A DNA stretch of 64,000 nucleotides from Patescibacteria group bacterium (lineage in GTDB: Bacteria > Patescibacteriota > Minisyncoccia > UBA6257 > 2-01-FULL-56-20), in NCBI GenBank assembly GCA_038063755.1, contig JBBTUL010000011.1, positions 3,946-67,945 of the forward strand, read 5' to 3'. The stretch's first letter is position 1; every line of letters begins with the position of its first letter. The notes below the pieces were generated by a model. It did not search any database, was not told the DNA's origin, and worked only from the letters and a program-made list of their open reading frames with translations. Made by a program: the position numbers and the translations under genes. This document shows positions 1,986 to 55,169 of this stretch, in pieces.

Positions 1986-2024
1986 GCGTTTTTGTTTCTA
2001 GCCACGGAGGCATATACTTAAGCC

Positions 2025-2303
2025 ATGATTAAAATCGTCGGGAATGATATTTTGCGCTCCGGATCTAAGATTGGCTGGATTGAGTCAAACGATATTTTTG
2101 ACCATAGCGGAAAGAAGCGAGGATATTTTACCGAGAACGATATTTTCGAATACAGTGGGAAGAAAATAGGATGGGTTTTGGGAAACGAAATTCATGCCGT
2201 TGGTGGCAGGGCTATGCGACTTGATGATAATAGAAGAATCGTCTCCGGAGGATCTTACCCCGACATTGTGCGAGCGGCGATACGGCTTATTCTCGGAGAG
2301 TGA
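2025..2303 (+). CDS. Small hypothetical protein with three tandem SGKKIGW / NDIF(D/E)(H/Y) repeats (WG/KWG-like)
   Basis: 92-aa ORF in the uvrA-uvrC gap. Internal repeats GSKIGWIESNDIFDHSGKKRGYFTENDIFEYSGKKIGWVLGNEIH are visible by eye. Confidence 0.4.
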   Translation: MIKIVGNDILRSGSKIGWIESNDIFDHSGKKRGYFTENDIFEYSGKKIGWVLGNEIHAVGGRAMRLDDNRRIVSGGSYPDIVRAAIRLILGE

Positions 2304-2337
2304 TCGTTTACGCCCCACTTTTCCGCAAAGAGAACGG

Positions 2338-8854: not shown

Positions 8855-10525
8855 ATGATTCTGGATGATTTGCGGGGGGCAGTTCGCGGAGAGGTTTTAG
8901 GCGATGAGCAGTCGCTTTCTAAGTACAGTCACGATGCCTCCATATTTGAAGTAAAGCCGCAGGCGGTAGTACAACCACTCGACGTGGAGGATATAAAAAG
9001 CCTCGTTCGGTTCGCAACGGAAAAAAACGAGCAAGGGGAGCGAGTTTCGCTCTCCGGCCGTGCCGCAGGGACTGATATGAGCGGCGGACCGCTTACCGAG
9101 TCGATCGTAGTCGACTTCATGAAGCACCTAAACCATGTTGTTTCCGTTTCCCCGGAAGTCAACAGCCAAGGAGTCATAACTGGAGGGTCAGCCGTAACGG
9201 AGCCCGGAGTGTTTTATAGGGACTTCGAAAAAGAAACGATGAAGGTGAATCTCATCATGCCTTCATACCCGGCCTCACGCGAACTTTGTGCAATCGGAGG
9301 AATTGTTTCAAACAATTCGGGAGGAGAAAAAACGCTTATGTTCGGAAAAACCGAAGATTACGTGAGCCGCCTTAAGGTGGTCTTGAGCGATGGGAATGAA
9401 TACGAGTTTCGTTCGCTTTCTCCCGAAGAGCTCGCCAAAAAAAGGGAGCTCAAGACTTTTGAGGGAGAGATTTATCGAAAAATGTTTAAGCTTCTCGAAG
9501 AGAACTACGAAACGATTCAGCGTGCGCGCCCTGATGTCTCAAAAAATTCCGCGGGGTACTTTTTGTGGAATGTATGGGACAAAAAGAAGTTTGATCTTAC
9601 CAAGTTATTTGTTGGTGCGCAGGGTACGCTCGGTCTTATCACCGAAGTCGAATTTCAACTTGTTCCGGTCAAAAAGCATTCGCGTATGGTAATAGTTTCG
9701 CTTCGAAACACCGACGTGGTGAGCGAGATGATCAACGTGATACTTTCCTTCAAGCCGGAGAGCTTCGAGTCGTATGATGACAAAACGCTCAAGCTTGCTA
9801 TGAAATTTGCTCCCGAACTGGTCCGGAAGCTTAAAAAGAATATTTTTGTCCTTGCATGGGAATTTCTTCCGAGCATTTTAGCGATGCTCCGTATCGGATT
9901 TCCAAAGCTTGTTTTACTTGTCGAGTTCAACGGAGACAACGAAGCTGAACTCGAGGAGAAGACAAAAGAAGTTGCGAAAGCGCTCAAGCGTTTTCGCTCT
10001 CCAGTGCGGAGAACGCGGAGCGAAGAAGAGGGGAAGGAGTACTGGGAAATTCGAAGAGAGAGCTTCAGCCTGCTGCGTGGCCACGTGAAGGACAGGCACA
10101 CCGTTCCCTTTATAGACGATGTTATCGTAAAACCCGAACACCTTCCTGAATTCCTACCGAAACTCGACGCCATCCTTGCGCCGTACAAAGACAAGATGAT
10201 TTACACGATTGCCGGGCACGAAGGAAATGGAAACTTCCATATTATTCCTCTTATGAAAATTGAAGATCCAGAAACTCGCGCGCTCATTCCCAAAATCTCA
10301 GATGCGGTTTACGACCTGGTGCTCGAGTATGGAGGTTCGATTACGGCAGAACACAATGATGGAATTATCCGGACGCCATACCTTACGAAGATGTATGGGG
10401 AGGGGGTCGTCAAATTGTTCGAGGATACGAAGAACATTTTCGATCCAAAAGGCATTTTTAACCCGGGAAAGAAGGTCAGGGGGACTCTCGAGTATGCCAT
10501 GAGCCATATCCGTGAGCGGTGGTAG
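8855..10525 (+). CDS. FAD-binding oxidoreductase (FAD-linked oxidase / GlcD-like dehydrogenase)
   Basis: N-terminal PCMH-type FAD-binding domain (RAAGTDMSGGPL, GGIVSNNSGGEK). C-terminal FAD-oxidase domain. 556 aa. Confidence 0.8.
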   Translation: MILDDLRGAVRGEVLGDEQSLSKYSHDASIFEVKPQAVVQPLDVEDIKSLVRFATEKNEQGERVSLSGRAAGTDMSGGPLTESIVVDFMKHLNHVVSVSPEVNSQGVITGGSAVTEPGVFYRDFEKETMKVNLIMPSYPASRELCAIGGIVSNNSGGEKTLMFGKTEDYVSRLKVVLSDGNEYEFRSLSPEELAKKRELKTFEGEIYRKMFKLLEENYETIQRARPDVSKNSAGYFLWNVWDKKKFDLTKLFVGAQGTLGLITEVEFQLVPVKKHSRMVIVSLRNTDVVSEMINVILSFKPESFESYDDKTLKLAMKFAPELVRKLKKNIFVLAWEFLPSILAMLRIGFPKLVLLVEFNGDNEAELEEKTKEVAKALKRFRSPVRRTRSEEEGKEYWEIRRESFSLLRGHVKDRHTVPFIDDVIVKPEHLPEFLPKLDAILAPYKDKMIYTIAGHEGNGNFHIIPLMKIEDPETRALIPKISDAVYDLVLEYGGSITAEHNDGIIRTPYLTKMYGEGVVKLFEDTKNIFDPKGIFNPGKKVRGTLEYAMSHIRERW

Positions 10526-31765: not shown

Positions 31766-32803
31766 ATGGTCATCTTTTTCATTGTTCTTTTCGGACTTTC
31801 TGCGTTGATCTTGGGACACGAAGCGGGTCATTTTTTTGCTGCGCGTTGGTTCAAGTTGAAAATAGAAGAGTTCGGAATTGGTTTTCCGCCGCGTATTTTC
31901 GCCAGGAAGAAAGGAGAAACCGAGTACAGTGTGAATTGGCTTCCATTCGGTGGATTCGTGAGAATCGCCGGCGAGAACGACGGAATGAAAAACGAAGAAG
32001 AGCCCATAGCGAACGAAGATCGCTCGAGGTATTTTTCTACGCAACCCGCGTGGAAGCGAGCAGTGATAATGTTCGCGGGAGTTTTTGTGAACTTTATTCT
32101 CGGCTGGTTGCTTCTTTCGGCGGTTTTTCTTTCGGGAACTCCAAAAATACTCCTTGTTGCGGATGTTGAACCGAATTCGCCAGCCGCATCGGTTGGGCTA
32201 AAGCGAGGTGATGTGATAAAGGACTATCAACAAGCCGAGCAGTTTATTAGTTTCGTAAACGAAAATCGTGGCAAGGAAATATCGTTTGCGATTATTCGCG
32301 ATGGGAAAGAGATTTTTATGGTTACAACTCCGCGCGGAACTGTTTCTGACGGGAAGGGGGCGTTGGGAGTTTTTCTGGAGGAAGGAGGTTCGGAGCGATC
32401 CGGATTTTTTGCATCACTTGCAAAAGGATTCAGCGCCGCACTCAGCATGATTGTTCTTACCATTCAATCATTTTATGAGCTTATTAGAAATTTTGTTTCG
32501 AGCGGAACACTGCTTGAGGGAGTCGTCGGACCGGTTGGGATTTTTTCTGTTGCCGCAAGCGCAAGTAAGTTTGGTCTCGTTTATCTTTTTCAGATTCTCG
32601 GAATTATTTCGGTCAATCTCGCGGTTCTAAATCTCATTCCGTTTCCGGCCCTCGACGGGGGAAGGCTTTTCCTCCTTTTGATAGAGAAAATAAAAGGAAC
32701 TCCGGTTCCGAGGAGGACCGAGATGATTGCAAACGGAATCGGATTTGCCCTGCTTATTCTTCTTATGATTGTTGTGACCGTTCGAGATGTCGTGCGATGG
32801 TAG
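31766..32803 (+). CDS. rseP: RIP metalloprotease RseP (site-2 protease, M50) with PDZ domain
   Basis: HEAGH zinc motif within the first TM helix. PDZ segment. LDGG motif near the C-terminus. Confidence 0.88.
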   Translation: MVIFFIVLFGLSALILGHEAGHFFAARWFKLKIEEFGIGFPPRIFARKKGETEYSVNWLPFGGFVRIAGENDGMKNEEEPIANEDRSRYFSTQPAWKRAVIMFAGVFVNFILGWLLLSAVFLSGTPKILLVADVEPNSPAASVGLKRGDVIKDYQQAEQFISFVNENRGKEISFAIIRDGKEIFMVTTPRGTVSDGKGALGVFLEEGGSERSGFFASLAKGFSAALSMIVLTIQSFYELIRNFVSSGTLLEGVVGPVGIFSVAASASKFGLVYLFQILGIISVNLAVLNLIPFPALDGGRLFLLLIEKIKGTPVPRRTEMIANGIGFALLILLMIVVTVRDVVRW

Positions 32804-33141
32804 ATTTTCTTGCCGTAAATAATCGTTTTCTTGAAGAAATCAATTTTCGCGCCGCGGATGGAATTTTTTAAGCGTTCCGAAGGGTGAAAGGAAGGGCGAT
32901 TAAGAAGATTCTTGTTTTGCATCTTAAGCTTTCAACGGGCAACATATCCATCTTGACACCCTTTCGTGTCTGGGACTTGAGGGTGTGAATCATTTTTTGC
33001 GACAAGGTTTTCCAATGCGAAAGTTTGGGGATAACTAATTCTTTGACATGGATCGAGGGTCGGCCCTACACTTTTTTATAGGGGATGTTCTGTCGACTCC
33101 CAACTAAAAAAACAGGGTAGCCGTTTTACGGCACCATCCAT

Positions 33142-35868
33142 ATGCCCAAAGAAAAAACAAATCGGTCAGTAGCTCGTCGTATACTCGCAACACCATCTCA
33201 CCTTCGGAGATTTTACACAAAGGAAGGAGTACATCCTTTCGCCGAGGTTGAGTGGAAGAGCGCCGTTGTGACTGTACCAGGAGTTACCGGCATGCTTGAG
33301 CGGGAGGTTGAGGTTCCGGCATCATGGTCAGAGCATGCGGTTCGAATTGCAGCGGCGAAGTATTTTCGAGGACGGATTGGGACAAGCGAGTGGGAGTCTT
33401 CGGTGAAGCAGATGATCTCTCGCGTCGCAGGGACGATCCGCGATTGGGGAAAAAAATTCGGTTATTTCTCAAGCGAAGAAGCATCGAGTGTTTTTCATGA
33501 TGAACTCACTTCGATTTTACTTCATCAGCGCGCTGCGTTTAATTCTCCGGTTTGGTTCAACGTTGGCGTTATGGCCGAGCCGCAATGTTCCGCGTGTTTT
33601 ATTCTTTCGGTTGAGGATAATATGGATTCTATTTTGGACTGGATTAAAAACGAGGGACTCATCTTTAAGCGGGGGTCTGGTGCCGGAATAAATCTTTCAA
33701 CGCTTCGTGCCGAACGAGAGACGCTATCGCAAGGAGGACATTCTTCGGGACCTGTTTCGTTTATGCGAGGTGCCGATTCGGTTGCAGGGATGATCGCTTC
33801 CGGTGGTTCCACGAGGCGTGCCGCAAAGATGGTCGTGATGAATATTGATCACCCCGACATCATGCAGTTCGTTTCTTCAAAGGCAGAAGAGGAGAAGAAG
33901 ATCAGAGCGTTTATTGATGCGGGATACAATATGTATGACTTAAACAATGAAGCGTGGCACTCCATCCAATATCAGAATGCGAATAATTCTGTTCGAGTGA
34001 CAGACGAGTTTATGTCAGCGGTTGAGCGGGACGAATCATTCTCGACAAAGTTCATTCGTAATAACGACGTTGCGGAAACACATCGCGCGAAAGATATGAT
34101 GCGTTCGATTGCGCAAGCGGCATGGGATTGCGGGGACCCAGGAATCCAATTCGATACCATCATCAACAGGTGGCATACGTGTCCCGTGACGGGGCGTATT
34201 AATGCGTCGAATCCATGCAGCGAATACATGCACCTTGACGATTCCGCATGCAACCTTGCCTCGATAAATCTCATGAAGTATCTCGGCGAAGATGGGTCGT
34301 TCGACGTTGATGCCTTCAGGCATACCGTTCGAATCATGATCCTTGCCCAGGAGATTGCGGTTGAGGGTTCTTCCTATCCAACGAAAAAAATAACCGAAAA
34401 CGCGAGGAATTTCAGGCAGCTTGGCCTGGGATATGCGAATTTGGGAGCGCTTCTTATGAAAAAAGGTATCGCGTATGATTCGGAGGAGGGCCGACACTCA
34501 GCTGCTTCGATTACGGCGCTCATGACCGGAGAGGCGTATCGCTGGTCCGCGGTCATTGCAAAGGAAAAAGGACCGTTTGTGGGTTTTGATGTGAACCGAA
34601 AGCCGATGCTGCGCGTGCTTGGCATGCATCGTGACGCACTTGATCAAATAAGACCGGAAAGAGTTTTTGACCGTCGGGTGTTGAGCGAAGCGGTAGAGGC
34701 GTGGGATGAGGCAGTGCAATTTGGCGGAAAATACGGAGTCCGAAATTCTCAAGCAACCGTTCTCGCTCCGACGGGAACCATAGCGCTTATGATGGACTGT
34801 ACAACGACCGGCATCGAGCCGGAGTTCGCTCTCGTGAAAACGAAACATCTTGTTGGCGGAGGGACGATGAAATTTATTAACTCTGTGGTGCGGGATGCGC
34901 TCGTGACGCTTGGTTATGGCGAAGAAGAACGAAATGCTATCGTTTCATACATCGAGGACAAAGGGGTTGCCGAGGGAGCGCCGTATCTGAAAGCAGAACA
35001 TCTTTCGGTTTTTGACTGTGCGGTGCGATCTCAGAACGGAACGCGATCAATCCCGTGGCAGGGTCACGTGAAGATGGTCGCGGCCGCGCAGCCATTCCTC
35101 TCGGGAGCAGTTTCAAAAACTTTCAACATGTCTGCCGAGACGACGGTCGAAGAGATAATGGAAGCATATGTTTCAGCGTGGAAGTTGGGACTCAAGGCTT
35201 TTGCGGTGTACCGCGATGGCTCAAAGGCTGCGCAGCCGCTTGTTACGGGAAACGGAGGCGGAACGAAAAGGAAGAAGCAGGAAGAACCGGTGCGAAGGCG
35301 CTTGTCCGCTACTCGCAAATCGGAAACGCATAAGTTTTCCATTGCAGGGCACGAAGGATACCTCACGCATAGCATTTTCGACAACGGAGATCTCGCAGAA
35401 ATTTTTATTAAAATGTCGAAACAAGGATCGACACTTGCTGGACTTCTCGATACTTTTGCGATTGCGGTTTCTATCGCCATTCAGTACGGAGTGCCTCTTT
35501 CGACTTTGGTACAGAAGTTCTCGCACGGGAGGTATGAGCCAGCTGGATTTACCGCAAATCCGGATATTCCTGTTGCCACGTCTATCACCGACTATATTTT
35601 TCGATATCTCGCGGTAAAGTTTCTGACTTCGACAGAACTTGAAGACCTCGGAATTTCGGGCACCTCTCAAATTAAGAGCGACACGACGACAAAAGAAGAG
35701 GTCGAGGTTGAGCTTGAAAAACCGGCAGCGCTTCCTCCAAAAAGAGAGGCCTCAAGCGGCGGCGTGGTGTATGCCGACAGTGTTTGCCGCGCGTGCGGCG
35801 GTATGCTCATCCAGACGGGATCTTGTAAGACCTGTATTCAGTGCGGTACTTCAAACGGCGGTTGCTGA
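33142..35868 (+). CDS. nrdJ: Ribonucleoside-diphosphate/triphosphate reductase, class II (adenosylcobalamin-dependent, NrdJ)
   Basis: 908 aa. ATP-cone-less class II layout. Conserved NPCSE-like catalytic region. C-terminal Cys-rich zinc ribbon (CRACGG...CKTCIQCG). Confidence 0.9.
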   Translation: MPKEKTNRSVARRILATPSHLRRFYTKEGVHPFAEVEWKSAVVTVPGVTGMLEREVEVPASWSEHAVRIAAAKYFRGRIGTSEWESSVKQMISRVAGTIRDWGKKFGYFSSEEASSVFHDELTSILLHQRAAFNSPVWFNVGVMAEPQCSACFILSVEDNMDSILDWIKNEGLIFKRGSGAGINLSTLRAERETLSQGGHSSGPVSFMRGADSVAGMIASGGSTRRAAKMVVMNIDHPDIMQFVSSKAEEEKKIRAFIDAGYNMYDLNNEAWHSIQYQNANNSVRVTDEFMSAVERDESFSTKFIRNNDVAETHRAKDMMRSIAQAAWDCGDPGIQFDTIINRWHTCPVTGRINASNPCSEYMHLDDSACNLASINLMKYLGEDGSFDVDAFRHTVRIMILAQEIAVEGSSYPTKKITENARNFRQLGLGYANLGALLMKKGIAYDSEEGRHSAASITALMTGEAYRWSAVIAKEKGPFVGFDVNRKPMLRVLGMHRDALDQIRPERVFDRRVLSEAVEAWDEAVQFGGKYGVRNSQATVLAPTGTIALMMDCTTTGIEPEFALVKTKHLVGGGTMKFINSVVRDALVTLGYGEEERNAIVSYIEDKGVAEGAPYLKAEHLSVFDCAVRSQNGTRSIPWQGHVKMVAAAQPFLSGAVSKTFNMSAETTVEEIMEAYVSAWKLGLKAFAVYRDGSKAAQPLVTGNGGGTKRKKQEEPVRRRLSATRKSETHKFSIAGHEGYLTHSIFDNGDLAEIFIKMSKQGSTLAGLLDTFAIAVSIAIQYGVPLSTLVQKFSHGRYEPAGFTANPDIPVATSITDYIFRYLAVKFLTSTELEDLGISGTSQIKSDTTTKEEVEVELEKPAALPPKREASSGGVVYADSVCRACGGMLIQTGSCKTCIQCGTSNGGC

Positions 35869-35880
35869 AATCCATCGACC

Positions 35881-36402
35881 ATGTTTTTACTGTTCACCGG
35901 AAACGGCAAGGGAAAAACGACATCCGCAATCGGACAAGCGGTACGAATGTTGGGCGAGGGGAAGCGGGTACTCATGATCCAATTTATTAAAGGCCCGTGG
36001 AAGTCCGGAGAGGACGAGTCGTCAAAGCTGCTTCATCCGAATTTCCGGATCATAAAGTCGGGGAAAGGGTTTGTGGGAATATTGGGAGACAAACTGCCTC
36101 GCGAGGTGCACCGTGCGGCCGCGCGAAAAGGACTTGCGCTCGCCATAAAAGAGGCGAAATCGAGAAGATGGGACGCTCTTATCTTGGATGAGGTTCATAA
36201 CGCGATAAAACTTCGCTTGCTTACCACAAAGGATGTGCTGTCTTTTGTCGATATCGCGCTTAAGAAGCTCGAGCATCTAATTCTTACCGGGCGGGATGCG
36301 CCCCGCGCGCTTATCTCTCGTGCCGATCTCGTGACGGAGATGCGCGAAATAAAGCATCCATACGCGAAAGGAAAGAAGGCCGAGAAGGGAATAGAATACT
36401 AA
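35881..36402 (+). CDS. cobO: ATP:cob(I)alamin adenosyltransferase (CobA/CobO/BtuR family)
   Basis: P-loop GNGKGKTTSAIG and IQFIKG motif typical of CobA/BtuR. 173 aa. Confidence 0.85.
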   Translation: MFLLFTGNGKGKTTSAIGQAVRMLGEGKRVLMIQFIKGPWKSGEDESSKLLHPNFRIIKSGKGFVGILGDKLPREVHRAAARKGLALAIKEAKSRRWDALILDEVHNAIKLRLLTTKDVLSFVDIALKKLEHLILTGRDAPRALISRADLVTEMREIKHPYAKGKKAEKGIEY

Positions 36403-36422
36403 AAACCAACCGTGACCAATAT

Positions 36423-36959
36423 ATGATTAATCGCTTCACGAACATCATAAAATATCTTTTAGGAATCGGCATCTGTCTTGGCATTCGGTTTCTTCCATTT
36501 CGCGCGCCGAATGTCGAGCCGGTAATGGGGACGCTTATGCCCTTCGCGAAGCGATTCGGTTATCTTTCGGGTTTTCTTTTTGGGTTTGTGAATATTTTCC
36601 TCTATGACATTTTGACCGGAAAGATTGGCATGTGGACATGGGTGACTGCATGCTCGTATGGACTGCTTGGTCTTGCAGCGGGTTTGTTTTTTAAAAACCG
36701 GAAGGGAAGCCCCGCGAACTTTTTCGCGTTTTCTGTGATCGGAACAATTGCCTACGACGCGATTACCGGACTTACGATCGGGCCGGTTTTCTACGGGCAG
36801 CCGTTTTTGAACGCACTCACTGGGCAGATTCCGTTTACCGCATTGCATCTTTTGGGTAACGGCGTTTTCGCTCTTGCTATCTCTCCGCTCATTGATCGCT
36901 TTATCGTTTCGAACAAGAGTATTGAGCTTGCGGTAATACGAGAAAAGTTTGCCACGTAG
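36423..36959 (+). CDS. Small 5-6 TM membrane protein; candidate ECF-type vitamin S-component
   Basis: 178 aa, hydrophobic throughout. The functional guess rests only on size, topology and position next to nrdJ-cobO. Confidence 0.45.
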   Translation: MINRFTNIIKYLLGIGICLGIRFLPFRAPNVEPVMGTLMPFAKRFGYLSGFLFGFVNIFLYDILTGKIGMWTWVTACSYGLLGLAAGLFFKNRKGSPANFFAFSVIGTIAYDAITGLTIGPVFYGQPFLNALTGQIPFTALHLLGNGVFALAISPLIDRFIVSNKSIELAVIREKFAT

Positions 36960-37082: not shown

Positions 37083-38222
37083 ATGAAGATCGCGCGTTTG
37101 CTTTGTGTCGTGGCGGCGCTACTCAGCGTCGCAACGGAAAGCTTCGGCGCCTCTTCAGGGAGGTCGCCGGAATTTTTCGGGTACAACAATAACCTTTCAA
37201 TCTCTTCTCGGCAAGGTATTACCGCCGAGGCGGCGATGCTCGGTGCGAAAGGCGGGATGAAGTGGTCCCGCTACACGCTTTACTGGAATCGGGTGAACCC
37301 CGAACCGGGAGTGTATGACTGGTCGCAGGTCGACCAGCAGCTCCAGGTTACGTACGACGCCGGTGGCGTTGTATATGTAAACCTGAAGTGGGCTCCGGCT
37401 CATGCGGCGGAGGGGAGGAACACATACCTCCCGTTCTACTGCATGAAGTTGGACGGTTCGGAGCCCGACGGCTTCGATCGTTCCAAGCCGGACTGCACTG
37501 ATCCGGCTCCGCTCGATTCAGCGAAGTTGCGGACAGTCATCCGCGAGTTCCTCACGTCGCATGTACTGGACGTGAAGGCGGGCAGGATTGCCGCGTTTGG
37601 GTGCTTCAACGAACCGGCGGACCAGATCTATTGGCCGCCGGGATCGCCCCAGGAACTCGTGGATCGGGTCCTTCGCCCGTGCGCGGAGGAGGTTCGGAAG
37701 TTTCGGAAGGAAAACCGGATCTCGGCCGCGAAGCTACCGATCGTGGGGCCGGAAGAAATCGATCCGGCCAACCTCGAGCGGATTTTCAAGCTTGAGGAAG
37801 CCGGAAAGATCTCGCTCTTCGACGTGGTAAGTTTTCATCTTTACCACGGTCCGAAGGGTATGGAATACCCGGTGGGACCGCTCACATTCTACGATCATCG
37901 CTACCGGCCGCTCATCGAGCGGTACGGAGCGAATCGTCCCGTCTGGATCACCGAGACAGGCGCAAAGCCCCTCGGTGAGACGTTCGCGGATCTTCGAGAT
38001 CAGGGCGTTCGCTTGGTCTCAATGCTCTCCGAGCTCGAGGCCAGGAGGACGTTCGTCGTAAAGAGCGGCGGGAAGAACATTACCCGCCGAGGAGTTGAGA
38101 AAATTTTCATATATAAACTAGTTGCTGGGTCGTGCCCGGGGAGCGAGTATACGCTTCTCGATTGCACGGGAAAGGTCAAGCCCAGCTACCGCCAGGTGAA
38201 GGCCTTCATTCTCGGCAAGTAG
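37083..38222 (+). CDS. Secreted TIM-barrel glycoside-hydrolase-like protein
   Basis: Signal peptide MKIARLLCVVAALLSVA. The W..VNPEPGVYDW motif resembles GH5/GH39/GH42-type barrels. Locally GC-rich. Confidence 0.5.
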   Translation: MKIARLLCVVAALLSVATESFGASSGRSPEFFGYNNNLSISSRQGITAEAAMLGAKGGMKWSRYTLYWNRVNPEPGVYDWSQVDQQLQVTYDAGGVVYVNLKWAPAHAAEGRNTYLPFYCMKLDGSEPDGFDRSKPDCTDPAPLDSAKLRTVIREFLTSHVLDVKAGRIAAFGCFNEPADQIYWPPGSPQELVDRVLRPCAEEVRKFRKENRISAAKLPIVGPEEIDPANLERIFKLEEAGKISLFDVVSFHLYHGPKGMEYPVGPLTFYDHRYRPLIERYGANRPVWITETGAKPLGETFADLRDQGVRLVSMLSELEARRTFVVKSGGKNITRRGVEKIFIYKLVAGSCPGSEYTLLDCTGKVKPSYRQVKAFILGK

Positions 38223-47637: not shown

Positions 47638-49293
47638 ATGAAGTTTGACGACAAAAAAATAAAGCAGATCCTCTTAAAAGAAAACTACGTTACCGAAGAA
47701 GATATTCGAAATGCAGAAAGTTTTACCAAAACACATCCTGTCTCGTTCACGGAGTATTTACTCAAGGAAAATCTCATCACCAAGGATCTCTTGGGGCAAA
47801 CGATCGCCGAATCGTTCGGCCTTCCGTATGCGGATCTTAACTTGCGTCCGGCAACGACCGAACAGGTTAATGTACTGCCGGAAGATATTGCGAAGAAATA
47901 TCGTCTTGTGGTGTTCTGGTGGAACGACAAGCGGGTCATTATAGCAACCGATGATCCTGGGCAACCCGGCGTGCTCGCGGCCGCGGCGCAGTTATATCCA
48001 AAGCGCGCGGTCTCTCTTGCGTACGCGTTACCAGAAGACGTTAATGCGGCATTTATTTTTTATCAAAAACCGCTCGAAACTCGCTTCGGGAAGATTATCG
48101 AGGGTCAGGGACGAATTGCTCCGGAGCTTTTGGAAGAAATTTTTGGGGACGCGATTGCGTATCACGCCTCTGATATCCATTTTGAACCTCAGCAAAAAAA
48201 TGTGCTTGTGCGATTTCGCATTGACGGAGTTTTGCACGTAGCCGGTAGGATCCCCAAAGAGTATTATGAGAATATTCTTAATCGCATAAAGGTGCAAAGC
48301 GGCCTGCTCATTGATGAACACTTTGCGGCTCAAGACGGTTCGCTTCGATATGAAAAAGACGGCTCAGCAATTGATATGCGAATTTCAATCGTGCCGACCA
48401 TTGAAGGCGAAAAAGCCGTCTTACGTATTTTAGCGGCGTATGCTCAGGGGCTTAACCTTTTAGACCTTGGACTTTCTCCATTGCATCAAGAATTACTTAA
48501 GGCATCTGCCAAAAAACCGTTTGGAATGATTCTCGTTACGGGGCCGACGGGTAGCGGAAAAACGACAACCTTGTACGCGCTCGTAAAACTCGTGAACAGC
48601 CCGGACGTGAATATCACCACCATCGAAGATCCGGTGGAATACAAGGTGCTTGGCATAAATCAAATACAAATAAATCCTCAGACTGATCTTACTTTTGCCA
48701 AAGGCTTACGCTCTATTGTGCGCCAAGACCCGGATATTATTCTCGTGGGCGAAATTCGAGATAACGAAACAGCAGAAATATCAATCAATGCGGCTTTGAC
48801 CGGACATTTGCTATACTCCACTTTTCACGCCAACGACTCCGCCGCGGCAATTCCCAGACTTCTTGATATGGGAGTTGAGCCGTTTCTCCTCGCTTCCACG
48901 CTTGAGGTGATCATTGCGCAACGGCTCGTGCGCAAAATTTGCGATCGTTGTCGTTATGGCGCGGAGAAAAAAATCGGTGATTTTGATACGCCACAATTTA
49001 AATCTGCCGCGCGTTATTTTCCCGAAGAATCCATAACGCTTTATCAAGGCAAGGGGTGCGCGTCGTGTAGCAATACGGGCTACCGAGGAAGAACTGCGAT
49101 TTTTGAGTTCATCCAAATTACTCCCGATATGCAAAATCTTATTTTACGCTCGCCGTCTTCCCAGGAAATCTGGTCTTTGGGGTGCAAAGAAGGTGCGCAA
49201 TCGCTTTTTGAAGATGGAATTCTGAAAGTAAGAGCCGGTATCACGACACTCGAAGAACTACTTCGCGTCGCTGAGCCGCCACAACAAAAATAG
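47638..49293 (+). CDS. pilB: Type IV pilus assembly ATPase PilB (GspE family)
   Basis: N-terminal GSPII_E_N-like domain, Walker A GPTGSGKTTT, Asp/His boxes, tetracysteine motif CDRC...CASC. Confidence 0.9.
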   Translation: MKFDDKKIKQILLKENYVTEEDIRNAESFTKTHPVSFTEYLLKENLITKDLLGQTIAESFGLPYADLNLRPATTEQVNVLPEDIAKKYRLVVFWWNDKRVIIATDDPGQPGVLAAAAQLYPKRAVSLAYALPEDVNAAFIFYQKPLETRFGKIIEGQGRIAPELLEEIFGDAIAYHASDIHFEPQQKNVLVRFRIDGVLHVAGRIPKEYYENILNRIKVQSGLLIDEHFAAQDGSLRYEKDGSAIDMRISIVPTIEGEKAVLRILAAYAQGLNLLDLGLSPLHQELLKASAKKPFGMILVTGPTGSGKTTTLYALVKLVNSPDVNITTIEDPVEYKVLGINQIQINPQTDLTFAKGLRSIVRQDPDIILVGEIRDNETAEISINAALTGHLLYSTFHANDSAAAIPRLLDMGVEPFLLASTLEVIIAQRLVRKICDRCRYGAEKKIGDFDTPQFKSAARYFPEESITLYQGKGCASCSNTGYRGRTAIFEFIQITPDMQNLILRSPSSQEIWSLGCKEGAQSLFEDGILKVRAGITTLEELLRVAEPPQQK

Positions 49294-49316
49294 CAACTGC
49301 TCTGTGTCTCTATTGT

Positions 49317-50408
49317 ATGCCGCAGGAAACATTACAGCGTAAATTTTTCAATATCGGCCTTGGCAGAGAACGGGAGTATTTTGTTGAAAATCTAAGTACG
49401 TTGGTCGCCGCTGGCATGCCGATCCTAAACGCGCTCGATGCCATTGTAAAAGGACTACGTTCACGCCGTATGAAGCACATCGTTGCTCTTATCCGGGATG
49501 ATATTGAATCCGGTTCGCCGATCTGGAAAGCGCTTAAGAAAACGAACCTATTCGCTGATCACGCCATCTCGCTCGTCCGGCTCGGCGAAGAAGCGGGAAG
49601 ATTGGCCGAGAACCTGAAGGTGGTCGCGAGCGAACAAGAGAAAGGGAGAGTTTTTCGCTCCAAGCTTCGTTCGGCAATGATGTATCCGGTCTTCGTGCTT
49701 TCACTCACGGTTATTATCGGCGTGGGTATTGCCTGGTTCATATTGCCCAAATTGGCGCTTGTATTTGCCCAGCTTCGAATAGAGTTGCCACTCATCACCA
49801 GGGTACTAATCGGAATCGGCATTTTTCTAAACAACTACGGGCAGTATGCCGTGCCTGCGGCCATCACGGTGCTCGTCGCTTTATTTTATTTTGCGTTTTT
49901 ATCTCCCAGGACAAAAGATATCGGTCAATTTATTTTATTTTCTTTGCCCGGCGTGAAGAGGCTTATTCAGGAGGTGGAGTTGGCGCGATTCGGTTATCTT
50001 TTGGGAACGCTTCTCGAAGCGGGCTTGCCGATCACACAGGCGCTCGGTTCGCTCGCAAGCGCGACCGAAATTCCGCAATACAGAAAACTTTACGCGTACC
50101 TTCACGATTCAGTGGAAGACGGCAACTCGTTCCAGAAAAGTTTTACTTCATTTAAGCACGTCGATCCCCTTATCTCCGTGCCCATACAGCAACTCATCAT
50201 CGTCAGCGAACAAGCCGGTACGCTTTCCAAAACGGTGCTCAAGATAGGCCAAATATATGAAACAAAGTCCGACACCACCGCAAAGAACCTCGCCGTCATT
50301 CTTGAGCCGATACTGCTTGTCATCGTGTGGCTTGGAGTCGTAGCTGTGGCGCTGGCAGTCATTCTGCCTATTTATAGTCTCATTGGCGGATTTAGTCCCA
50401 ACAATTGA
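49317..50408 (+). CDS. pilC: Type IV pilus platform protein PilC (GspF family)
   Basis: Two GspF repeats and three TM segments. Confidence 0.88.
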   Translation: MPQETLQRKFFNIGLGREREYFVENLSTLVAAGMPILNALDAIVKGLRSRRMKHIVALIRDDIESGSPIWKALKKTNLFADHAISLVRLGEEAGRLAENLKVVASEQEKGRVFRSKLRSAMMYPVFVLSLTVIIGVGIAWFILPKLALVFAQLRIELPLITRVLIGIGIFLNNYGQYAVPAAITVLVALFYFAFLSPRTKDIGQFILFSLPGVKRLIQEVELARFGYLLGTLLEAGLPITQALGSLASATEIPQYRKLYAYLHDSVEDGNSFQKSFTSFKHVDPLISVPIQQLIIVSEQAGTLSKTVLKIGQIYETKSDTTAKNLAVILEPILLVIVWLGVVAVALAVILPIYSLIGGFSPNN

Positions 50409-50412
50409 TCAG

Positions 50413-50856
50413 ATGAAAATTTGTAAGACCGGGGGCTTTACTCTGCTGGAAATAGTTCTCTCCATCGCGACGATTACGATTATTGCCGGAATTTCCATTC
50501 CCATCTATCAATCGTTCCAGGTTAAAAATGATTTGGATATTACCGCGAATACATGGGTCCAAACATTGCGGCGAGCCCAAGTACTTTCGCGCGCAGTTGA
50601 CGGAGACAGTACCTGGGGAGTAAAAATTCAACCCGCCGGTTTGATTTTATTTAAAGGCGCGAGTTACGACTCACGCGATGCTACCTTTGATGAAATTTTT
50701 ATGGTGCCCACGAGCATCAGCGCCTCCGGCATTACCGAAATCGTTTTTGCAAAGTTCACCGGCAACCCGCAGGCAACCGGTACCACAACGCTCACGGCTT
50801 CGACTGCCGAAATTAGGACGATTAACATAAATGAAAAAGGTACGCTTACATACTAA
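50413..50856 (+). CDS. Prepilin-type (minor) pilin
   Basis: MKICKTGG|FTLLEIVLS: class III signal with Glu+5. The ORF opens at 50383. Confidence 0.75.
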   Translation: MKICKTGGFTLLEIVLSIATITIIAGISIPIYQSFQVKNDLDITANTWVQTLRRAQVLSRAVDGDSTWGVKIQPAGLILFKGASYDSRDATFDEIFMVPTSISASGITEIVFAKFTGNPQATGTTTLTASTAEIRTININEKGTLTY

Positions 50857-52591
50857 GAAAGGCTTCAGTATTATTGAGGCGCTTCTCGCGGGGGCACTTT
50901 TTACGCTCATAGCCTCTGCTTTTATCGGAGCCGTCGTGTACGGCGAAGAAAGCACCCAGCTTTCGGGCGAATTGAGCCGAGGGGCAACTATTGCAGAAGA
51001 GGGAATAGAGGCGACTCGGAATATTCGAGATAACGCTTTTTCTAGCCTGACTGCCGGAAATAACGGCCTCGCGATTTCCGGAAATCAATGGATTTTCTCA
51101 GGAGTACAGGATGTCGTCGATATCTTTACCAGAAAAATTAATGTCGCTCCCAATTCGCTTGGGAGCGGGTCAAGGAGTGTGTCAGTGTCTACCACATGGA
51201 CACAAACACAGCAGAGAGGTGGTTCGATAAATATTTCTTCGTATCTCACCAACTGGCGCGGCTGCCGGGGAGGAATACTTGTCTACGGCGATGGTGGCGC
51301 GACAACTGACGCCATAAAATATAAAACCCTGAAGGGAAATGATGCCAGCGACTGTACTTGGAGTTCGGCCGCGTCCGCCGCGGATGTGGATACCGGCACT
51401 ACTAACAAAAGCCTTCGGGCGGTTCAGGTTTACGCCTCCTCCAATCGCCATGAAAAAATAATGCTCTCTCGCCATTACAATGGAACTACGCAGTATATAT
51501 ATGCGCAGGTTTTTGACGGCACTTCCGGCACATGGGGCAATGTCCAGTTGCTTTCCAGCTGGGCGGCGGCAACATTCTTAGATGTCCAAAATTTTAGCGG
51601 AACATATTTGGCGAACGGTGATTTTATGGTTGTTTATTCAGACAACGGCACCACTCCGAAATCCAGAACTTGGGACGGTTCGTCGTGGTTAGCACAAGTC
51701 TCAATGCCGGACATGGGTGGTAACCCAAACTACATTGTCGTGCGCGCAAGACCAGGTACCAACGAAGTGATGGCTGCCTTTTTTGATCAGTCGAGCGATA
51801 CAAATACAGAGTATTTCAATGGTGGAACGTATGCTACGGCAAATTGGACACTTCATACTGAACATGCAAGCGCGGCTCCGAATAACACGCAATGGCTTGT
51901 TGATTTTGCTTGGAGCCCTAACAATTCTCTTAAGGGCGGATTAATTTACTCCGATGCCGGAACTGACAAATCGCTTGATATTAAAATATGGACTGCGGAT
52001 GGTTCCGGTGGTGGATCTTGGAGTGCGGTTGTAAATAGCACTAATCAAGCAAGTAACCTCGGTCCGATGGCAATACGTGGACGACCGGGAATGGATGAAT
52101 TTGTAGCCTGTGATAAAGACGCCGGGAACCCTCCAAGAGTTATATGTTATAACAGCAATTTCACGCCAACGTGGACTAATCCGACCAACAACATAATCGT
52201 TGATGGAACAGATGCAGGCATACAGCGCAGTTTTGATATCGGTTTTGAATCAGTTTTCGGAGATCCGGCTGTGGCTGTTTATTCCGACCGAACACTGACC
52301 CCAAAGCTTAAAAAGTATACTGCCTCGACTACGACGTGGGATCTTAGCGCCACAAATTTGAGTGTGATTGACGCGGCTCTCGCGACTGTCCGCATAACTC
52401 CCTACCCAAACACGGATGAAATGATGATTCTCCTGGGTGATGTTAACTCTCGTTTTTATAGTGTTGTTTGGGACGGGGACAATAATGTCATCTACACTAC
52501 TCCCGGCGGATATGCATTTGCCGTTCATGGCGTCAATGGTTCAATAGTCGAGACAGATTATTGGTATGACTTCGCATGGGACCTTTATTAA
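50831..52591 (+). CDS. Giant pilin-like protein (586 aa) with prepilin N-terminus and WDG(S/T)xW repeat domain
   Basis: MKKVRLHTKKG|FSIIEALLAG prepilin signal. The body contains repeated ...TWDGSSW..., ...DGTSGTWGN... units. Confidence 0.75.
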   Translation: MKKVRLHTKKGFSIIEALLAGALFTLIASAFIGAVVYGEESTQLSGELSRGATIAEEGIEATRNIRDNAFSSLTAGNNGLAISGNQWIFSGVQDVVDIFTRKINVAPNSLGSGSRSVSVSTTWTQTQQRGGSINISSYLTNWRGCRGGILVYGDGGATTDAIKYKTLKGNDASDCTWSSAASAADVDTGTTNKSLRAVQVYASSNRHEKIMLSRHYNGTTQYIYAQVFDGTSGTWGNVQLLSSWAAATFLDVQNFSGTYLANGDFMVVYSDNGTTPKSRTWDGSSWLAQVSMPDMGGNPNYIVVRARPGTNEVMAAFFDQSSDTNTEYFNGGTYATANWTLHTEHASAAPNNTQWLVDFAWSPNNSLKGGLIYSDAGTDKSLDIKIWTADGSGGGSWSAVVNSTNQASNLGPMAIRGRPGMDEFVACDKDAGNPPRVICYNSNFTPTWTNPTNNIIVDGTDAGIQRSFDIGFESVFGDPAVAVYSDRTLTPKLKKYTASTTTWDLSATNLSVIDAALATVRITPYPNTDEMMILLGDVNSRFYSVVWDGDNNVIYTTPGGYAFAVHGVNGSIVETDYWYDFAWDLY

Positions 52592-52671
52592 TATATGGGC
52601 CACACCGCATATATTCTCATCCGCTCGAAAATATTTTAGCAAGCTAAATATTTTTCTCACTCATTTCGATT

Positions 52672-53127
52672 ATGAAAAAACAAAAAATCAAAATTAATTC
52701 CGGGTTCACACTTATCGAATTGCTCCTCTATGTAAGTTTGAGCGGGATAATTCTTCTTTCCACTTCTATTTTTTTGACATCACTCTTGGAAGCGAGGGTC
52801 AAGAATCAAACGATTGCGACAGTAGAACAAGAGGGGGCTCAAGTGATGGAAGCAATCAATCAAGCGGTCCGAAACGCTACCGCCATAAATTCGCCGGCAA
52901 CCGGAATGAGCGCCACGTCACTTTCAATTAATACAACCATACCGGCGAACAATCCTACTATTTTTGATTTATCGAGTGGTACTATCAAAATCCAAGAGGG
53001 AGCTGGGCCGGCGGTTTCGCTTACTTCCAATCGGAGTATTGTCTCCGGTTTAAACTTCCAGAATCTAACGAAGCCATTCACGTCAGGAAATATCCGAACA
53101 TTATTTATACTTACTCATATTCAATAA
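52672..53127 (+). CDS. Prepilin-type pilin
   Basis: MKKQKIKINSG|FTLIELLLYVSLS. Confidence 0.8.
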   Translation: MKKQKIKINSGFTLIELLLYVSLSGIILLSTSIFLTSLLEARVKNQTIATVEQEGAQVMEAINQAVRNATAINSPATGMSATSLSINTTIPANNPTIFDLSSGTIKIQEGAGPAVSLTSNRSIVSGLNFQNLTKPFTSGNIRTLFILTHIQ

Positions 53128-53139
53128 ATAACACCCAAC

Positions 53140-54207
53140 ATGAACCCGAAATTAAAAAAATCTAAAAAATGGTTTGCGCCCACTGGATTTTTTTTAGCAC
53201 TCTTTGTTGCGGTATTTTTTATAGCCAACAACATTATAGCTGCCGATGGATCGGGGACAAATACGGTAAGCCCGACCTCCGCAACCACAAGTTCTGCCGG
53301 CAACATTTTTAATTTCACCTTTACCGCTGCGGAAACAATGGATAGCGGCGAAATTAACCTTTTGACTCCGACCGGATGGAGCGCTATGCAGGGTGTTAGT
53401 GGAACTGCAGGATATACGACCGCCGCATCAACTGGCATGATTGCTAATGTTTTGGATAACGCGGATAGTATTACTGGCTGGTCGGCTGGCACCCAATGTG
53501 GCGGCGGCTTAACTTCGGATACGACAAATAAACAAGAGGGAACCGCTTCTATCAACTGCGCTGCCAACAACGAGGCTCTCGGTGATGTCTTTTATAAAAA
53601 CATTACCGCCCAGAATTGGTCTGGTTACACCAAGGTTGGTTTTTGGATACGTTCCGGTAAAGCTTTGGCCGCCGGCAATCTTCAATTCTCCTACGACGAC
53701 AGCAGTAATCTTGCCAGCCCAATTGAAAACATATCGGTTCCGGCCATCCCCTTCAATAGCCCATGGATGTATGTCGTTTTAGATTTAGGAGCTACCACCA
53801 GAACTTCGGTTGTAAGTTTTGGGTTCCGGAATAACACCGGCGGTGGGCCGTTGGACTTTACGACGTTTCGTATAGACGACCTACTAATAGGCCCCGGATC
53901 GCTCTCTTTCCCTGGCGGTGGTGTTGTCGGTGCCAGACTGCTTCAATTGTCAAACACCCAGACCGTAACAATCACGTATGGCTCCGGCGGGGGATCAAGC
54001 GGCGTCACCGCGCCGGCAATAGTGGGAGCGGCTATGGCAACTACCACGAATAGAGTTTCAGATGCCGGAACACTGACTAATGTAGGTACCCAACCAACGC
54101 TAACTGCGATCGATCCTGCCTCCACGACCACCTCTACTGCGCCGACTATTGGCCGATACGAATATATTTATTCAAGAACTTTTTCCGGCGACGCAAGCCT
54201 TAGATAA
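53140..54207 (+). CDS. Secreted Ser/Thr/Gly-rich protein in pilus locus
   Basis: Sec-type signal peptide, no Glu+5. T/S/G-rich body. Confidence 0.5.
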   Translation: MNPKLKKSKKWFAPTGFFLALFVAVFFIANNIIAADGSGTNTVSPTSATTSSAGNIFNFTFTAAETMDSGEINLLTPTGWSAMQGVSGTAGYTTAASTGMIANVLDNADSITGWSAGTQCGGGLTSDTTNKQEGTASINCAANNEALGDVFYKNITAQNWSGYTKVGFWIRSGKALAAGNLQFSYDDSSNLASPIENISVPAIPFNSPWMYVVLDLGATTRTSVVSFGFRNNTGGGPLDFTTFRIDDLLIGPGSLSFPGGGVVGARLLQLSNTQTVTITYGSGGGSSGVTAPAIVGAAMATTTNRVSDAGTLTNVGTQPTLTAIDPASTTTSTAPTIGRYEYIYSRTFSGDASLR

Positions 54208-54208
54208 T

Positions 54209-54592
54209 ATGAAAAATAAAGGATTTATAACCCTGGCAAGTGTTTTGGTTATAAGCGCAGTCGGTCTATCGATCGCGTTGTCCCTTGTACTGCTTGGCCT
54301 GGGTTCTTCACGAACCAGTTTCGCTCTTAATCAATCAATTCAGGCGAGGGGCCTGGCGAATGCCTGCGCCGAAGAATCTTTGCGTAAGGTTAAAAACTCA
54401 CTTCTCTTCGTGGGAACTTCAACCCTAACCTTACCCGGGGGCACCTGCGTGTATGCCGTTACGAATACCGGCGGTCAAGCAAGAGCCATTACCACCTCGG
54501 GCCAGGTCGGCGCCATTATCCGCAAGGTCAATATATCAATTAGTCGAATTACACCATTTATTACCGTTACCTCTTGGCAGGAATTGCCATAA
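54209..54592 (+). CDS. Pseudopilin-like minor pilin lacking Glu+5
   Basis: MKNKG|FITLASVLVIS. The ORF opens at 54149. Confidence 0.55.
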   Translation: MKNKGFITLASVLVISAVGLSIALSLVLLGLGSSRTSFALNQSIQARGLANACAEESLRKVKNSLLFVGTSTLTLPGGTCVYAVTNTGGQARAITTSGQVGAIIRKVNISISRITPFITVTSWQELP

Positions 54593-54680
54593 TTTCTGAA
54601 AAGTTTTCCTTAATGTATAATTAAGGAGGGTAAAGGTCGTTCTTAAGCAACCACTTAACTAATTAACTAAAGAGCAGCAC

Positions 54681-55169
54681 ATGAAAAAACTAATTCGTAA
54701 TTCCCGATTGCAAAGCAATCGAGGATCCTCGATTAAATCGGGACAAAAAGGGTTTACGCTTCTCGAAATTCTTCTCGTTGTCGCCGCCATCGGTACCTTG
54801 GCCGGCATCGTTATTTTGGCCATCAATCCGAACAAACAGCTTGGTGACACGAGGAACGCCCAACGGAAAGCCGATGTGAATACGATCCTGAATGCCATCT
54901 ATCAATATTCGATTGATAATAACGGAGCATTACCGGCGGCTATTACCACCGGCTCGGTAGCAATCTGCAGAACTGGCGCTGTCTGTACCGGCTTGATCGA
55001 TCTGGGCGTGCTTACCGCCAATGAGAAATATCTCACGTCAATACCGTTTGATCCGAACGGATCCACTGCGACCAGTACGGGCTATACGGTCATCAAATCC
55101 GTCAATAACAGAATAACCATAGCGGCTCCGAGTGCCGAACAGAGTGCAGTTATTAGTGTCACAAGATAA
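54681..55169 (+). CDS. pilA: Type IV major-pilin-like protein (PilA-like) with long leader and C-terminal disulfide loop
   Basis: ...GQKG|FTLLEILLVVAAIGTLAG. Cys pair CRTGAVC. Strong terminator follows. Confidence 0.8.
   Translation: MKKLIRNSRLQSNRGSSIKSGQKGFTLLEILLVVAAIGTLAGIVILAINPNKQLGDTRNAQRKADVNTILNAIYQYSIDNNGALPAAITTGSVAICRTGAVCTGLIDLGVLTANEKYLTSIPFDPNGSTATSTGYTVIKSVNNRITIAAPSAEQSAVISVTR

Follow-up and report, generated by a model that had tools for sequence, protein, structure and literature searches.

An S-component-fold membrane protein in a predicted B12 uptake, activation and use operon of a Patescibacteria genome

How might a bacterium that does not make vitamin B12 supply a B12-dependent ribonucleotide reductase (RNR) with its cofactor? 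The question is raised by a predicted operon in 64 kb of DNA from a Patescibacteria (candidate phyla radiation, CPR) metagenome-assembled genome (MAG); this whole stretch, which we call the window, is the part through which the genome is visible. The operon consists of nrdJ, cobO and a gene for a 178-aa membrane protein, here called the S gene. To our knowledge, the mode of B12 import is unknown for most B12-auxotrophic prokaryotes, nor is there a described route for either CPR or DPANN. The three genes lie as follows:

33142-35868, + strand: nrdJ, 908 aa, class II adenosylcobalamin (AdoCbl)-dependent RNR
35881-36402, + strand: cobO/btuR-type ATP:cob(I)alamin adenosyltransferase
36423-36959, + strand: S-component-fold membrane protein, 178 aa, six transmembrane (TM) helices, predicted corrinoid importer

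We consider it likely that nrdJ-cobO-S (33142-36959) is a minimal unit for taking up, activating and using B12 in a bacterium that does not make it. NrdJ carries the Pfam domains Ribonuc_red_2_N (PF08471, 63 bits), Ribonuc_red_lgC and TSCPD, ends in a zinc ribbon and lacks an ATP-cone; it scores 1264 bits against NCBIfam NF005122 (cutoff 859) and 593 bits against TIGR02504 (cutoff 400). With an equivalog cutoff passed and the class II N-terminal domain present, NrdJ is a class II AdoCbl-dependent RNR. CobO matches PF02572 at 180 bits over its full length and has the P-loop GNGKGKTT at residues 7-14, its score against TIGR00708 (158.5 bits) lying slightly under the equivalog cutoff of 167.75. 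All three genes stand on the same strand, separated by 12 nt (nrdJ-cobO) and 20 nt (cobO-S), and contigs from Hainich groundwater, which come from ERZ1292619 and ERZ1292625, carry the same operon. An identical copy of the 178-aa protein is recorded as 'ECF transporter S component [Patescibacteria group bacterium]', ECF standing for energy-coupling factor. Full-text searches returned no paper linking Patescibacteria to ECF or B12 transport, and a CPR study from the same aquifer noted only fragments of the cobalamin pathway (PMC8672522).

The 178-aa protein is predicted to have the ECF S-component fold. An AlphaFold2 (AF2) model built with 41 homologues (predicted local distance difference test, pLDDT, 92.2) has six long helices and a short C-terminal helix. 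Searched against the PDB with Foldseek, it returned RibU, FolT, PanT, ThiT and BioY as its best matches, with TM-scores of 0.57-0.66 in the top ten and a probability of 1.0; the top 20 are all S components (TM-scores 0.47-0.66). In Pfam it matches PF07155 (ECF-ribofla_trS), at 29.5 bits with a gathering score of 26.7, as do 37 of 41 family members. The likeness to RibU, FolT, PanT and ThiT thus lies in structure and in this Pfam match; the match to RibU/PF07155 is barely above the gathering score, and the pocket residues and the genomic context are different. Against NCBIfam NF010182 the protein reaches 29 bits where the cutoff is 99, and by this measure it is not a RibU equivalog. The family has at least 650 members at 90% clustering, is present in 405 GTDB species genomes and, in a search of 1.84 billion protein representatives, forms 276 clusters at 50% identity with E ≤ 1e-3; judged by these searches it is a compact, sharply bounded family of CPR and DPANN.

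Invariant throughout the family are R22, N30, E32, D62, W71, T72, Y79, D112, T115, Q135, T139 and H142, the last being its only invariant histidine. By the helix boundaries of the AF2 model, the invariant polar residues are located in loops L1 and L3 and towards the outer ends of helices H5 and H6. With L4 and the C-terminus rich in K/R, the positive-inside rule puts these regions on the outer face, so that the conserved residues would coincide with the site of the S-component ligand pocket. No cysteine is conserved: the Cys77 column holds L, V, I or F, and the Cys18 column V or C. The same fold is also used in the receptor domains of sensor kinases (PMC11109136), and the protein could accordingly be imagined as no transporter but a sensor or membrane anchor that tethers or regulates the RNR/B12 machinery. 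We regard this as very improbable, as its 178 aa comprise the six-helix core and the short C-terminal helix, with no output or signalling domain, and its conserved residues are placed as in a ligand pocket.

Gene neighbourhoods tie the family to B12. We clustered the neighbour genes of 80 fetched species-level loci together with L004. This is the one diverged relative that shares the operon, and its S component has 75% identity to that of the window. B12-related genes stand beside the family member in 50 of these 81 loci, and in 35 of the 53 that have enough flank. Two architectures occur: type A, that of the window, is [ArsR]-nrdJ-cobO-S, and type B is S-RTPR-PduO, in which cobO sometimes replaces PduO. 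Over the 81 loci we counted RTPR 41 times, PduO 34 times and cobO 11 times; RTPR and PduO were identified by profile in one representative locus each (RTPR by ATP-cone, RNR_Alpha and RNR-II_ins_dom, with TIGR02505 at 293 bits; PduO by PF01923 at 149.5 bits). As in the window and L004, the S gene comes directly after cobO in 9 other species loci, and elsewhere its adenosyltransferase neighbours are mostly of the PduO type. One and the same membrane protein is therefore paired with RNRs from two class II lineages and with adenosyltransferases from two non-homologous families, a pattern that points to a shared cofactor.

A further partner suggests what that cofactor is. A DUF4430 gene comes after the family member at 14 loci, and in archaeal homologues from a large protein library (P0210, P0246 and P0267) the family domain is fused to a C-terminal DUF4430. 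The model of the DUF4430 domain matches intrinsic factor, haptocorrin and transcobalamin, and it superposes on the cobalamin-bound beta domain of human transcobalamin (5NP4/5NO0) with a target-normalised TM-score of 0.76, a root-mean-square deviation of 2.0 Å and E values of 4e-6 to 1e-3; the human beta domain binds cyanocobalamin by itself (5NP4). The DUF4430 proteins differ from transcobalamin in being prokaryotic, membrane-anchored or secreted, and apart from the alpha domain. The likeness, moreover, belongs to the related loci, the window encoding no DUF4430 protein.

As an observation on these loci, type B often has a 159-aa DUF4430 protein, then a 670-aa secreted or anchored alpha/alpha-toroid protein with a match to SQHop_cyclase_C and a sub-threshold one to Cobalamin_bind (22.9 bits), then ArsR. 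The DUF4430 and toroid pair stands at +2 to +4 after the S gene in L027, L033, L034, L035, L041, L042, L047, L056, L066, L078 and L079. The pair resembles a split prokaryotic transcobalamin, with alpha barrel and beta domain encoded separately.

An earlier note on this DNA had placed nrdJ, cobO and a small multi-TM gene where the open reading frames (ORFs) and profile matches now put them, and had seen no other B12 metabolism gene in the window. The latter agrees with tblastn searches of the 64 kb, which gave no match for RTPR, PduO, DUF4430, the toroid protein or ArsR, and with the Pfam labels across 26.4-47 kb, among which there is no further B12 gene. Its guess, made from context only, that the third gene encodes a corrinoid capture protein is borne out by the family-wide B12 linkage, the S-component fold and the DUF4430 fusion, and its idea of a self-contained import-and-adenosylate unit for an AdoCbl-dependent RNR is supported by the B12 gene context and the same fusion. 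Instead of the unrelated family with another conserved context that the note had considered as the contrary outcome, we found the opposite, a conserved context of class II RNR and corrinoid adenosyltransferase.

Several points weigh against a B12 importer. We infer the direction of transport, the energy coupling, the role of H142 and the substrate, the last from gene context and the domain fusion. Searches of all PDB sequences with phmmer and the family profile gave no match at E ≤ 10, including to the B12 transporters BtuM and CbrT, neither of which ranks among the 50 best Foldseek matches. We tested 18 family loci for a preceding cobalamin riboswitch and found none, and Rfam searches of 24 related loci returned no cobalamin riboswitch and no known leader RNA. 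Three other points would equally fit a protein that carries a different small molecule (riboflavin or flavin mononucleotide for reductive steps, a nucleoside, or S-adenosylmethionine, SAM) and has a loose link to B12: its sole Pfam match is the marginal one, at 29.5 bits, to the riboflavin S-component family; at 31 of the 81 loci the fetched flank lacks any B12 gene; and the archaeal fusion L129 directly follows nrdD-nrdG, a class III, B12-independent RNR that needs SAM instead. Such a substrate nevertheless seems improbable to us. The recurrent partners are B12-specific, namely two unrelated corrinoid adenosyltransferases and, in CPR, class II RNRs only, and no CPR locus of the family has nrdD or nrdG. 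A transcobalamin-beta-like domain is fused or adjacent to family members, and the marginal RibU match stands against a family so sharply bounded among 1.84 billion proteins. The L129 stretch itself (1-3095) is an archaeal contig with MCM, TBP and RNase P p30, with the S-DUF4430 fusion downstream of nrdD-nrdG.

Read as a B12 unit, the operon would work in three steps. A corrinoid from outside the cell, be it cobalamin or a different cobamide, would first be bound by the S-component-fold protein. The pocket of this protein would be made up of loop L1 together with the outer ends of helices 3-6 and would hold the invariant polar residues, including H142; by toppling, as S components typically do, the protein would carry the corrinoid through the membrane. 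CobO would then adenosylate cob(I)alamin to AdoCbl, thereby also trapping the cofactor inside the cell, and NrdJ would use AdoCbl to reduce ribonucleotides.

Two characterised B12 transporters offer comparisons. BtuM was predicted from chromosomal context (for example, co-localisation with btuB) and then shown to be a solitary S-component B12 transporter; btuM adjoins btuR in most hosts, and metabolic trapping by BtuR was proposed (PMC6072759). The window protein shares with BtuM of Thiobacillus denitrificans (PDB 6FFV) its small size of about 20 kDa, the S-component fold, a gene beside that of the adenosyltransferase (btuR/cobO), the lack of a nearby ECF module and the proposed combination of toppling with metabolic trapping by adenosylation. 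By contrast, there is no sequence similarity, BtuM falls outside the top 50 structural matches, and its essential cobalt ligand, Cys80 in L3, has no counterpart, since Cys77 of the window protein lies in a variable hydrophobic column. BtuM is also proteobacterial and often BtuB-linked, whereas the window family is that of CPR/DPANN and linked to class II RNRs. With CbrT of Lactobacillus delbrueckii (ECF-CbrT, PDB 6FNP), an S component for cobalamin and cobinamide, the likeness extends to a host that is unable to synthesise B12 but reduces ribonucleotides with its help (PMC5997447); CbrT, however, needs an EcfAA'T module, of which none is seen in the window or related loci, and the window protein has no sequence similarity to it, the criterion for the CbrT family being 25-60% identity to L. 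delbrueckii CbrT (PMC5997447). Membership of the BtuM or CbrT family was rejected for want of sequence homology and of the Cys ligand. The window protein is thus predicted to work like BtuM and CbrT from outside both families, as a member of an undescribed family of S-component-type B12 importers.

Whether import would be driven by ATP is a separate matter. A motif survey for ECF ATPases, covering the window and about 1.5 Mb from related loci, found no tandem EcfA-EcfA'-EcfT genes, and we lean somewhat towards a protein that works without a dedicated ECF ATPase module, in BtuM-like uptake driven by metabolic trapping. This leaning is tempered by the expectation of about 1.7 ECF modules by chance in the surveyed sequence, for which finding none has a P of about 0.2. 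The protein could instead be a conventional group-II ECF S component like CbrT, with ATP-driven corrinoid import through a shared EcfA-A'-T module encoded elsewhere. That is compatible with the S-component fold and the PF07155 match, with the habit of group-II S components to be encoded away from their ECF module, with the precedent of CbrT for ECF-type B12 uptake (PMC5997447) and with a gene survey that spanned only about 1.5 Mb. We think it rather unlikely, as no EcfA/EcfT-like gene set appeared in the window or any fetched locus, the tight linkage to an adenosyltransferase mirrors solitary BtuM, and sequence similarity to CbrT is lacking. The first helix tells the same way. AxxxA in TM1, known from ThiT and RibU, is the motif by which S components dock to EcfT, and the family has a TM1 consensus of G/A14-x-x-x-V/C18 in its place.

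The operon also raises the question of how its expression is controlled. The region upstream of nrdJ contains the following features:

31766-32803: rseP, upstream neighbour of the nrdJ region
32953-32998, + strand: hairpin 1 (32953-32989) with T6 (32993-32998)
33003-33035, no strand assigned: conserved upstream promoter block, about 40 nt almost identical to L004, flanks diverged
33026-33034, minus strand: DnaA-box-like 9-mer TTATCCCCA, 8 nt upstream of the -35 hexamer
33043-33072, + strand: sigma-70-like promoter TTGACA - 18 nt - TACACT, 10/12 in the consensus scan, hexamers and spacing identical in L004
33079-33141, + strand: 5' untranslated region (5'UTR) of about 62-69 nt, its start placed from the -10 element, no Shine-Dalgarno sequence

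The earlier note had taken the 338 nt before nrdJ (32804-33141) for a long structured, attenuator-like leader with two hairpins and had found no B12-box in it. The absence of a B12-box stands: at E ≤ 10, Rfam gave for 32700-33250 neither Cobalamin (RF00174 or variants) nor any credible family, only chance-level matches, and at the gathering score it found in the whole window just two tRNAs elsewhere. Both hairpins can be drawn, hairpin 1 with its T-run, but neither folds better than chance. Hairpin 1 has a minimum free energy (MFE) of -14.9 kcal/mol (z = -1.0; 35 of 200 shuffles fold equally well), and hairpin 2 (33055-33067) lies outside the MFE structure (z = 0.04) and overlaps the promoter spacer and the -10 element. 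The note had taken a lack of conservation in related genomes as evidence against the leader; the comparison with L004 shows conservation of the promoter and the DnaA-box-like block instead of a transcribed structure: both hexamers, their spacing and about 40 nt upstream are kept almost base for base, and the rest of the intergenic region has diverged. The 5'UTR folds at z = -1.8, and a GGGGAT...ATCCC stem is all that window and L004 have in common there. Judged on this conservation, 32804-33141 is not one leader but a predicted promoter region with a short 5'UTR, and the three genes would be co-transcribed from the sigma-70-type promoter at 33043-33072. We found no match anywhere in the window, at up to 3 mismatches, to the NrdR-box consensus, acaCwAtATaTwGtgt.

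Hairpin 1 sits 45 nt upstream of the -35 hexamer and, because it precedes the conserved promoter, is at most a weak terminator of rseP read-through. It is probably such a weak terminator, or an insulator against that read-through, and not part of an nrdJ leader. Between rseP and nrdJ, L004 has an inserted gene of 223 aa, which ends in a strong terminator hairpin (-16.4 kcal/mol, z = -4.4) at the position equivalent to hairpin 1. We rejected 32804-32950 as a remnant of the L004 gene, there being no tblastn signal.

The possibility that 32804-33141 is after all a long structured leader, serving nrdJ attenuation or an unrecognised riboswitch, draws on the T-run after hairpin 1 and on related operons: in distant nrdJ relatives the leader is longer, at about 165 nt, with a terminal hairpin and TTTTTGTCTC just before the ATG, and type-B operon leaders also end in a hairpin and T-run. 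We hold it to be highly improbable. Besides the missing Rfam match, the chance-level hairpins and a conserved promoter that lies downstream of hairpin 1 and overlaps hairpin 2, there is no promoter-like site on the + strand before hairpin 1 within 32500-33042, and the window lacks the hairpin-plus-U-run element of its nrdJ relatives.

That element has an attenuator-like look in the relatives that have it. In nrdJ relatives at 60-68% identity (L085, L086, L089, L093, L115, L117, L118, L119 and L122), the leader of about 165 nt ends in a variable hairpin (e.g. CTCTTTCGTC...GACGAAAGAG) and then a near-invariant TTTTTGTCTC 8-20 nt before the ATG, with no Shine-Dalgarno sequence and no Rfam match; RNAalifold gave the hairpin-plus-TTTTTGTCTC element a consensus energy of -0.26 kcal/mol on a poor alignment. 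In the type-B operons (L006, L011, L014, L022, L028, L043, L056, L077 and others) a conserved leader occupies about 100 nt upstream of the S gene. Directly after the -10 element it has a 14-bp palindrome, TAGTT(G/T)CGAAACTA, within AGTTGC...GCAACT arms. A hairpin, CCGCTTG-nnnnGTTGCC-CAAGCGG, whose loop repeats the 5' arm of this first element, stands some 12 nt ahead of the ATG and has TTTTAA after it. These type-B elements match no Rfam family and are absent from the window; they may be an operator of the co-encoded ArsR protein, an attenuator RNA or both.

The conserved block upstream of the promoter holds a further candidate element. Its DnaA-box-like 9-mer, TTATCCCCA, is one mismatch from the DnaA box TTATCCACA. 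Of 39 regions upstream of related RNR/B12 operons, 33 have a box within 1 mismatch of TTATCCACA next to the -35 element; among 794 control upstream regions, the share by the same mismatch criterion is at most 10.7%. A perfect DnaA box is found in 12 of 34 more distant nrdJ relatives, in the order box - about 8 nt - TTTGACG - 17 nt - TACAAT, and L093, L117, L118 and L119 share this order of box, TTTGACG, 17 nt and TACAAT. In E. coli, DnaA control through DnaA boxes at the nrdAB promoter is established (PMC8203912). The window resembles that case in having a DnaA-box sequence directly upstream of an RNR promoter; it differs in that its RNR is class II, in an operon shared with B12 genes, and in that there is one box only, which is degenerate. 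The upstream element therefore probably couples expression of the operon to replication initiation as at E. coli nrdAB, a reading that rests on motif identity, from which we infer DnaA binding. Counting against it are that a single box with at most one mismatch is, for the window taken alone, what chance would give, and that the window box is inverted relative to those of most relatives. Clusters of DnaA boxes like those of oriC, sought in the fetched loci to calibrate the CPR box, were not found.

Seen from nrdJ, the unit has a core and an addition. Of 44 related metagenome loci, at least 23 have cobO downstream of nrdJ, but only one (L088) has the S gene after them; because of this, nrdJ-cobO appears as the core pair, which the transporter gene joins in some lineages. 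Among the nrdJ relatives L085-L118, many CPR lineages have the order ybeY-ftsA-ftsZ-nrdJ (names read off cluster sequences, with no profile search), and variable small genes lie between nrdJ and cobO, including an apparent HicAB-like toxin-antitoxin pair. At L106 (2990-4008), a DUF4430 protein (PF14478, 53.5 bits) and a DUF6580 membrane protein (PF20221, 125.7 bits) are encoded directly upstream of nrdJ-cobO. DUF6580 and the window S-component family have the L1 motif R-x-x-P-x-x-x-N-x-x-P in common, and DUF6580 could be another family of S-component-like proteins serving the same role; its profile is touched by 6 of 41 members of the S family, an hhalign comparison of the S family with one single DUF6580 protein was not significant, and full-text literature searches gave no paper mentioning DUF6580. 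In a population variant (contig L001), the low-complexity linker that leads to the C-terminal zinc ribbon of NrdJ is longer by 25 residues (window 35764-35766, L001 about 9265-9340); the stretch consists partly of Ns, and the insertion may be an assembly gap instead of a real indel.

Some features accompany the family elsewhere. A helix-turn-helix protein of the ArsR/SmtB family, about 110 aa long (PF01022, 51 bits), is encoded at 25 of the 81 S-component loci and in both operon types, first in type A and last in type B (L038 4291-4629, L045 4294-4632, L064 about 4262-4585, L088 about 3596-3916); it is absent from the window and may be a dedicated regulator of the RNR/B12 module. One solitary S-component gene, in a Parcubacteria MAG, has a group I intron (RF00028, 69 bits; L008 3618-3891) some 500 nt upstream.

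Within the window, we inspected the start-codon contexts of the three operon genes (33129-33141, 35869-35880 and 36403-36422). nrdJ, cobO and the S gene are all without a Shine-Dalgarno sequence and have a C/A-rich stretch before the start (ccatccatATG, ccatcgaccATG and gaccaatatATG, respectively), unlike the gene at 37083, which has the Shine-Dalgarno sequence GGGAGG. A terminator 3' of the S gene was sought and not found. The gene at 37083 encodes a 379-aa secreted protein (37083-38222) with no family assignment and just faint glycosidase-like matches; we rejected it as a member of the module, as it has its own promoter-like site and Shine-Dalgarno sequence and is conserved only in L004, and treat it as unrelated to B12. 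Also unrelated to the operon is a type IV pilus-like gene run at 47638-55169, recognised from the ORF list alone, in which a PilC-like gene and several prepilin-like ORFs (N-termini FTLIE or FTLLE) accompany a PilB-like ATPase with Walker A motif.

Beyond this locus, we tentatively entertain, at less than an even chance, that CPR and DPANN share a third, hitherto unrecognised family of S-component-fold cobamide importers without sequence kinship to BtuM and CbrT, with a histidine-containing pocket in place of a cysteine-based one and no ECF module, often accompanied by transcobalamin-like capture proteins (the DUF4430 beta domain, with or without the alpha/alpha-toroid protein) and with expression tied to DnaA. 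If true, this would explain the cofactor supply of what is often the sole B12 enzyme of these ultra-small symbionts. The repeated presence of a DUF4430 partner hints that the transcobalamin beta domain has relatives in bacteria and archaea, and, going by the conserved DnaA box, minimal CPR genomes may link deoxynucleotide (dNTP) synthesis to replication as E. coli is known to do. As a small, sharply defined family rich in invariant polar residues, the importer candidates could be tested with complementation and binding assays of the kind used for BtuM and CbrT, and the operon offers a testable lead for B12 acquisition in CPR and DPANN. Many of these organisms appear dependent on a B12-dependent RNR for their DNA precursors; the importer would therefore be a point of dependence on hosts or communities, and would mark B12 cross-feeding in groundwater and similar microbiomes.

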